A stretch of 64,000 bases of DNA from Escherichia coli (GTDB lineage Bacteria; Pseudomonadota; Gammaproteobacteria; Enterobacterales; Enterobacteriaceae), in assembly GCF_044324875.1 (NCBI RefSeq), contig NZ_CP172185.1; one strand, given 5' to 3'. Positions 26,068-26,907 of this stretch are shown piece by piece. The notes below the pieces were generated by a model. It had not been told where the DNA came from, made no database searches, and saw only the letters and a list, made by a program, of their open reading frames with translations. Numbering within the stretch: position 1 is the first letter of the stretch; every line of letters starts with the position of its first letter. The translations under genes were made by a program, and so were the position numbers.

Positions 26068-26907
26068 TTACGCGGAGCGAGACGCTGTCGCCCCTGCGCG
26101 TGGTGGCAGGGCAAATGCCACCAGCGCCGGGATGAGATAAATAAACCAGACGGCGACTTCGCTGACGCTCGGCGCTTCCTGATAGCCAAAAATCCCTTCC
26201 ATCAGCGTGCCAAACAGCGAGTGAGTTGAGAGCACCGCACTCATATCGAAGGCGATTTCCTGAAAGTGGTTCCACAATCCGGCTTCATGAAATGCGCGAA
26301 TGGCACCAGCCGCCAGCCCTGCGGCGACGAAGAGAATAAACAGGCTGGTCCATTTAAAAAATGCACCAAGATTGAGGCGAATACCGCCCCAGTAGAGCAG
26401 GAAGCCGAGCACCACGGCTGTAGCAAGACCGAGCATTGCACCCAGCGGCGGCCAGATCCCGACATCTTGTTGAAACGCCGCCAGCAGGAAAAAGACCGAC
26501 TCCAGCCCCTCCCTTGCAACGGCAAAAAAGACCATCATCACCAGCGCCCAGCCATGATGATTCCCACGCTGCAATGCGCTATCGACTGCCTGCTCCAGTT
26601 GTACTTTGACGTTGCGCGACACTTTGCGCATCCAGAAAACCATCCAGGTAAGGATCACCACGGCGATCACCGCCACGATACCTTCAAACAGTTCCTGTTC
26701 TTTTTGCGGAAATTCGCCGGTGGTTTCGTTAATGAAGATACCCAAGCCCAGGCACAACGCAGCGGCAAGCAACACGCCAATCCACATCACACCAATCCAT
26801 CGGCCTCGCTGGGTACGCTTAAGATAGCTGGCGATCAAACTGACAATCAGCGCGGCTTCAAGTCCTTCGCGCAACATAATGAGAAATGGAACAAACATGC
26901 CACCCAC
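26068..26907 (-). CDS. efeU: Ferrous iron permease EfeU (FTR1 family), uninterrupted (probable start MFVPFLIM at 26898)
   Basis: 279-aa ORF containing two REGLE motifs (LREGLEAAL and AREGLESVF) typical of FTR1 permeases. Confidence 0.9.
   Translation of the reverse strand: MGGMFVPFLIMLREGLEAALIVSLIASYLKRTQRGRWIGVMWIGVLLAAALCLGLGIFINETTGEFPQKEQELFEGIVAVIAVVILTWMVFWMRKVSRNVKVQLEQAVDSALQRGNHHGWALVMMVFFAVAREGLESVFFLLAAFQQDVGIWPPLGAMLGLATAVVLGFLLYWGGIRLNLGAFFKWTSLFILFVAAGLAAGAIRAFHEAGLWNHFQEIAFDMSAVLSTHSLFGTLMEGIFGYQEAPSVSEVAVWFIYLIPALVAFALPPRAGATASRSA

Follow-up and report, generated by a model that had tools for sequence, protein, structure and literature searches.

The 64,000-nucleotide stretch of Escherichia coli DNA analysed here (contig NZ_CP172185.1; the window, in the following) carries on the minus strand, at positions 23606-26898, what is in all probability a wild-type E. 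coli efeU-efeO-efeB operon specifying a working EfeUOB iron transporter. A probability of about 0.93 is assigned to this reading, the remainder being left to silent regulation or to defects outside the window. The efeU reading frame, interrupted in K-12, is intact. Judging from allele counts in complete genomes, intact efeU is the norm of the species, and the deletion that interrupts the gene is a trait of the K-12 lineage, a derived and defective exception.

Genes of the efe operon

The efeU coding sequence (26068..26898, minus strand; 276 aa plus stop codon) is uninterrupted and encodes, according to the ORF list and profile matches, a ferrous-iron permease of the FTR1/OFeT family. The protein scores 331.2 bits against the NCBIfam EfeU equivalog NF041756 (cut-off 255, E = 4e-99), 351.7 bits against TIGR00145 (cut-off 303.8), and 300.3 bits against the Pfam FTR1 profile PF03239 (cut-off 25.3, E = 2e-89). 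Because of the E values obtained with the EfeU equivalog and with Pfam FTR1, a chance match is of no concern. Both REGLE motifs reported in the earlier note were found, at residues 10-14 (26857..26871, minus strand; the reverse complement reads CGCGAAGGACTTGAA) and 129-133 (26500..26514, minus strand; AGGGAGGGGCTGGAG in the reverse complement), in the numbering of the 276-residue protein. A Kyte-Doolittle 19-residue scan, which is a crude predictor, separates seven hydrophobic regions, and the motifs lie in the first and in the fourth of them. The window protein belongs to the EfeU family, and displays all the defining features that are open to a sequence test. No chain among solved structures is a sequence relative of EfeU.

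The efeO gene (24883..26010, minus strand) encodes a periplasmic protein of 375 aa, made by a cupredoxin and an M75/imelysin region, which features an N-terminal signal peptide and the sequence HRLE (HxxE) at residue 217. EfeO matches the NCBIfam EfeO profile with 773 and 481 bits, and the Pfam profiles Cupredoxin_1 and Peptidase_M75. It is identical to the K-12 protein at 371 of 375 residues (99%), the differences being 4 substitutions. The efeB gene (23606..24877, minus strand) encodes 423 aa, corresponding to a Tat-exported DyP-type haem peroxidase/deferrochelatase (TIGR01412, 615 bits; Pfam Dyp_perox_N and Dyp_perox_C). The twin-arginine motif SRRRLLK, the GFKDG motif, and residues D235, H329 and R347 are all kept. 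EfeB and its K-12 counterpart share 415 of 423 residues (98%); the 8 substitutions include a G in place of V at residue 20, within the signal peptide.

The gaps between the genes measure 57 nt (efeU-efeO) and 5 nt (efeO-efeB), and fit a single operon. As in K-12, putA and putP are found upstream of efeU, and phoH downstream of efeB.

Predicted function and regulation

EfeUOB is a tripartite ferrous-iron transporter, stimulated at low pH and related to the yeast Ftr1p-Fet3p system; EfeO is a periplasmic protein exported by the Sec route, EfeB a Tat-exported haem peroxidase which can also remove iron from haem (PMC9174327; PMC3577903). Iron represses the system, and low pH induces it (PMC4746246). 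In the strain analysed, EfeU would span the inner membrane with seven helices, as a permease of the Ftr1p/OFeT family, and the path for iron would be made by the REGLE motifs of helices 1 and 4. Its partners at work in the periplasm would be EfeO, with its cupredoxin and M75 domains, exported by Sec, and the DyP haem peroxidase EfeB, exported by Tat, and the three proteins would jointly import iron supplied as Fe2+. Fe-Fur would repress the operon, and low pH would induce it.

A working, acid-induced EfeUOB is very probably present in this strain, as in most E. coli. It is expected because efeU, efeO and efeB are intact, and because of what has been published on proteins that are identical or nearly so. 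The earlier note had anticipated a functional low-pH EfeUOB system, and the intactness of the three genes supports it, as does the identity of EfeU to the O157:H7 protein. EfeUOB is reported to work in O157:H7, and control of the system is said to be acid- and CpxAR-dependent, as the 2007 paper by Cao et al. reportedly states in its title. Function also requires the Tat pathway and a supply of haem, both of which are encoded beyond the window.

Sequences resembling regulatory sites were found next to efeU. A Fur-box-like sequence (CGTAATGATAATCGCTATC; 26958..26976, minus strand), located 78-60 nt upstream of the ATG, matches the consensus at 15 of 19 positions; the assignment is a consensus match only. 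It is identical in K-12. No other site in the 64 kb matches the Fur consensus with at most 4 mismatches, and none at all was found with 3 or fewer. A CpxR-box-like sequence (GCAAAGAAAAGTAAA; 26936..26950, plus strand), which is likewise a consensus match only, is flanked by the Fur-like box and the ribosome-binding site, and has 1 mismatch to GTAAA-N5-GTAAA. Over 402 nt, 3 CpxR-like sites with up to 2 mismatches were counted, where the rate in the window as a whole would predict 0.42. No element tied to the efe operon was detected by an Rfam scan of positions 22000-30000.

The intergenic region differs from that of K-12 in its distal part, beside the terminator hairpin of putP, where the window features about 123 additional nt and lacks 11 nt. 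A GC-rich intergenic repeat of 143 nt (27316-27458), absent at this site in K-12, is found just after the hairpin. The repeat is dispersed, occurring in 1-5 places per genome (median 2), and is unannotated in RefSeq records. It begins 418 nt from the efeU ATG, and is unlikely to influence the expression of the gene. A regulatory role for the insertion of about 123 nt was considered and discarded, as this is a dispersed repeat, far from the promoter-proximal region.

The operon might be silent, or otherwise non-functional, in spite of an intact efeU, as a consequence of the 143-nt repeat, of the changes in EfeO and EfeB, or of defects elsewhere, for example in the Tat pathway. The intergenic insertion and deletion relative to K-12 could be read in this sense, as could the 4 and 8 substitutions in EfeO and EfeB, inclusive of the change at residue 20 of the EfeB signal peptide, and the result of a simple scan of positions 23300-27600, which yielded no promoter-like site matching the sigma-70 consensus. 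However, the indel is located upstream by the putP terminator hairpin, at a distance from the ATG which exceeds 400 nt, and the 330 nt proximal to the gene are as in K-12 except for few substitutions and one 1-bp indel. In addition, all the motifs and catalytic residues tested are kept, and the 7-kb tract which includes the operon is found nearly unchanged, with an intergenic region of equal length, in another natural isolate. A silent or defective operon is therefore improbable, and a functional one is the preferred reading.

Start and extent of efeU

The earlier note had placed an intact efeU frame at 26068-26907. The ORF list confirms it, and assigns to the minus strand this uninterrupted frame of 279 aa, whose strand the note had left unnamed. 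The length of 279 codons holds for the ORF as mechanically delimited, from a GTG at 26907 which is merely the first in-frame start past the upstream stop codon. The gene itself measures 276 codons, since the RefSeq start is the ATG at 26898, three codons 3' of the GTG (831 nt, 276 aa); this start is taken from two genomes, the product of which is 100% identical to the window EfeU. The translation of the mechanical ORF opens with MGGMFVPFLIMLREGLEAAL, and includes the second REGLE at a later position.

The three surplus codons, GTG GGT GGC (26899..26907, minus strand), are probably not translated, and would belong to the ribosome-binding region. The GTG falls within the purine-rich, Shine-Dalgarno-like sequence AAGGGTGGG (26903..26911, minus strand), which is located 5-13 nt upstream of the ATG, and is rightly spaced for initiation at the ATG; upstream of the GTG, the sequence is only A/T-rich. 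A true product of 279 residues, started at 26907, has in its favour that the GTG is in frame and first in line after the stop. Such a product is very improbable, given the position of the GTG inside AAGGGTGGG, the RefSeq annotation of the ATG in genomes with an identical product, and the observation that NCBIfam and Pfam profiles begin at residues 1-5 of the 276-residue protein. A length of 276 aa, with seven transmembrane regions, is also given for EfeU in a paper from the Andrews group (PMC9174327). The 276-residue form is the one referred to throughout.

The K-12 frameshift and its distribution

The efeU gene of K-12 MG1655 (b4490, NC_000913.3) carries a pseudogene annotation, and measures 830 nt. 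The window and K-12 genes occupy the same locus, with the same neighbours, and are 99% identical at the nucleotide level. In their alignment, 13 substitutions and one gap are found. The gap corresponds to a G missing in K-12 from the GG dinucleotide at gene positions 106-107 (codons 35-36; 26792..26793, minus strand), which is intact in the window. K-12 reads ATT-GTGTG where the window reads ATTGGTGTG. Because of the missing G, translation of the K-12 gene is shifted in frame and runs as MFVPFLIMLREGLEAALIVSLIASYLKRTQRGRWIV, to stop at codon 37. The suggestion that K-12 efeU is frameshifted, made in the earlier note, agrees both with the pseudogene annotation of b4490 and with the single-nucleotide deletion in the alignment. 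The same alignment was the check that the note had proposed; the K-12 frameshift was looked for in the window, and is absent, both G residues being in place. In two published sources, EfeUOB is stated to be non-functional in MG1655 owing to the efeU frameshift (PMC2808357; PMC3577903).

The distribution of the two alleles was surveyed in complete E. coli genomes. DNA corresponding to efeU was found with a 1-kb query in 5417 of 5426 genomes. An 81-mer representing the intact window allele has exact matches in 3587 of the 5417. In contrast, the K-12 80-mer spanning the deletion is found exactly in 368, and 60 out of 60 among the matches listed appear to be laboratory or K-12-derived strains (MG1655, C600, DH5alpha, DH1, J53, NCM3722, HST04, and others). 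Genomes differing at one position from the 81-mer were sampled. The natural isolates among them span 81 nt, and therefore carry substitutions; the single one spanning 80 nt is a strain described as "laboratory developed". These counts of 80-mers and 81-mers only bound the frequency of the pseudogene outside K-12. With the 1-kb query, the matches in E. coli B REL606 and in O157:H7 show no change in length.

The contrast between an intact efeU and the K-12 copy, as framed in the earlier note, stands; what has to be adjusted, on the allele counts, is which of the two is unusual, the intact gene being the rule and the K-12 copy the exception. A reading of the intact frame as a notable strain-specific feature, due to reversion or to an acquired allele rather than to ancestry, might appeal to the tract from efeB to putA', which is nearly identical to that of an O158:H23 strain between flanks about 98% identical and suggests a recombination tract, but such mosaic identity is ordinary in E. 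coli and has no bearing on the frame, and the reading is hardly credible and was rejected on the figures above (3587 versus 368 of 5417, the listed carriers of the deletion being seemingly laboratory or K-12-derived) and on the unchanged length in REL606 and O157:H7.

That efeU is intact outside K-12, and that the K-12 gene is frameshifted, is already known, having been published in 2006-2007. Grosse 2006 and Cao 2007 reportedly describe a frameshift in K-12 efeU, and functional copies in O157:H7 and Nissle 1917. The genome carries a standard, presumably working EfeUOB, and K-12 is a poor reference for the efe locus. Iron-uptake models based on K-12 under-describe the strain, and EfeUOB should be added to them. 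Beyond correct annotation there is little consequence, as this is ordinary wild-type E. coli biology.

Chromosomal context

The DNA surrounding the operon is mosaic. The 7-kb tract spanning efeB-efeO-efeU-putP-putA' (23600-30600) differs at 2 positions from the corresponding DNA of the O158:H23 strain CFIAFB20140388, in which efeU, efeO and efeB are annotated as intact by PGAP. In the 17 kb past position 30600, identity to O158:H23 is about 98%. Over the 24-kb core of the window (23600-48000), identity stays below 99% in every one of the 5426 complete E. coli genomes, and for this reason the source lineage is without a close relative among them. The yccE/agp region (42600-44600) is unusually divergent: identity is 93.6-96.1% with O158:H23 and 94.2-95.2% with K-12, whereas elsewhere it is about 98%.

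Ahead of the core in the window, positions 1-21700 correspond to a genomic island which has no K-12 counterpart at this location and abuts phoH. The island looks like one for raffinose-type utilisation, and includes genes for a GH32 sucrose hydrolase (1852-3282), an oligosaccharide MFS permease (3279-4571), an alpha-galactosidase (4611-6737), a LacI-family regulator (6831-7841), and a tyrosine integrase (19289-20497). In the closest genome the permease gene is frameshifted, whereas it is intact in the window. The island also includes inovirus Gp2-like genes, a DUF3987 gene and a DUF2726 gene. The DUF3987 frame is split (14875-15339 and 15336-16421), and just past its end resides an IS21-family element (16630-19267; istA 16750-18396, istB 18170-19168), which is missing from the corresponding site of the closest genome, that of strain 135. 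Only 4 of the 5426 complete genomes feature at least 80% of positions 1-23600 in one place.

Two blocks of K-12 genes are missing. At 20658-22175, the block pgaABCD-dgcT-IS3-ymdE-ycdU (about 11 kb, from phoH to serX) is absent. Positions 20658-20938 match, at three offsets, a tandem repeat of about 181 nt located beside serX in K-12; ARAGORN detected no tRNA in the whole window. The interval 20658-22175 could be a remnant of the island attachment site, where the PGA biofilm operon was lost; alternatively, pga could reside beyond the window edge. At 57231-57239, the group-4 capsule cluster gfcABCDE-etp-etk is absent along with IS1D (about 9 kb; K-12 coordinates 1041906-1050962), and appA and cspH are joined by few bases. 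A match to the Rfam family Ysr251, a family of Yersinia antisense sRNAs, was found at 22224-22417 on the plus strand, with 191 bits against a gathering score of 100; it runs antisense to phoH, in the 3' part of that gene.

The 7-kb tract could be viewed as an iron- and proline-uptake block imported recently by homologous recombination, which, together with the sugar island and the absence of pga and gfc/etk, would speak of adaptation to a niche where EfeUOB matters. This scenario is unlikely; the evidence on the tract stays within ordinary E. coli mosaicism.

Comparison with known systems

Relative to K-12, the locus is conserved also in the 330 nt preceding efeU, and the differences are the G residue at 106/107, the substitutions in the gene, and the two distal intergenic indels, as detailed above. 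The closest known system is that of O157:H7. The window EfeU is 276 aa long, as is O157:H7 EfeU (YcdN), and is 100% identical in protein sequence to WP_000497942.1 of the O157:H7 strain PV15-279; the order efeU-efeO-efeB, and the placement of the operon by putP and phoH, are also the same. EfeU features no protein difference, and divergence is found at the DNA level, where identity is 98.6% over 1 kb. EfeUOB works in O157:H7, according to two sources (PMC2808357; PMC3577903).

A more distant relative is Ftr1p of Saccharomyces cerevisiae. The window EfeU matches the FTR1 profile over its full length, and both proteins have seven hydrophobic segments, the first and the fourth of which contain one RExxE motif each. 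In contrast, the partner of the yeast permease is the multicopper oxidase Fet3p (PMC9174327), the place of which is taken here by EfeO, a cupredoxin/M75 protein, and by EfeB, a DyP peroxidase.
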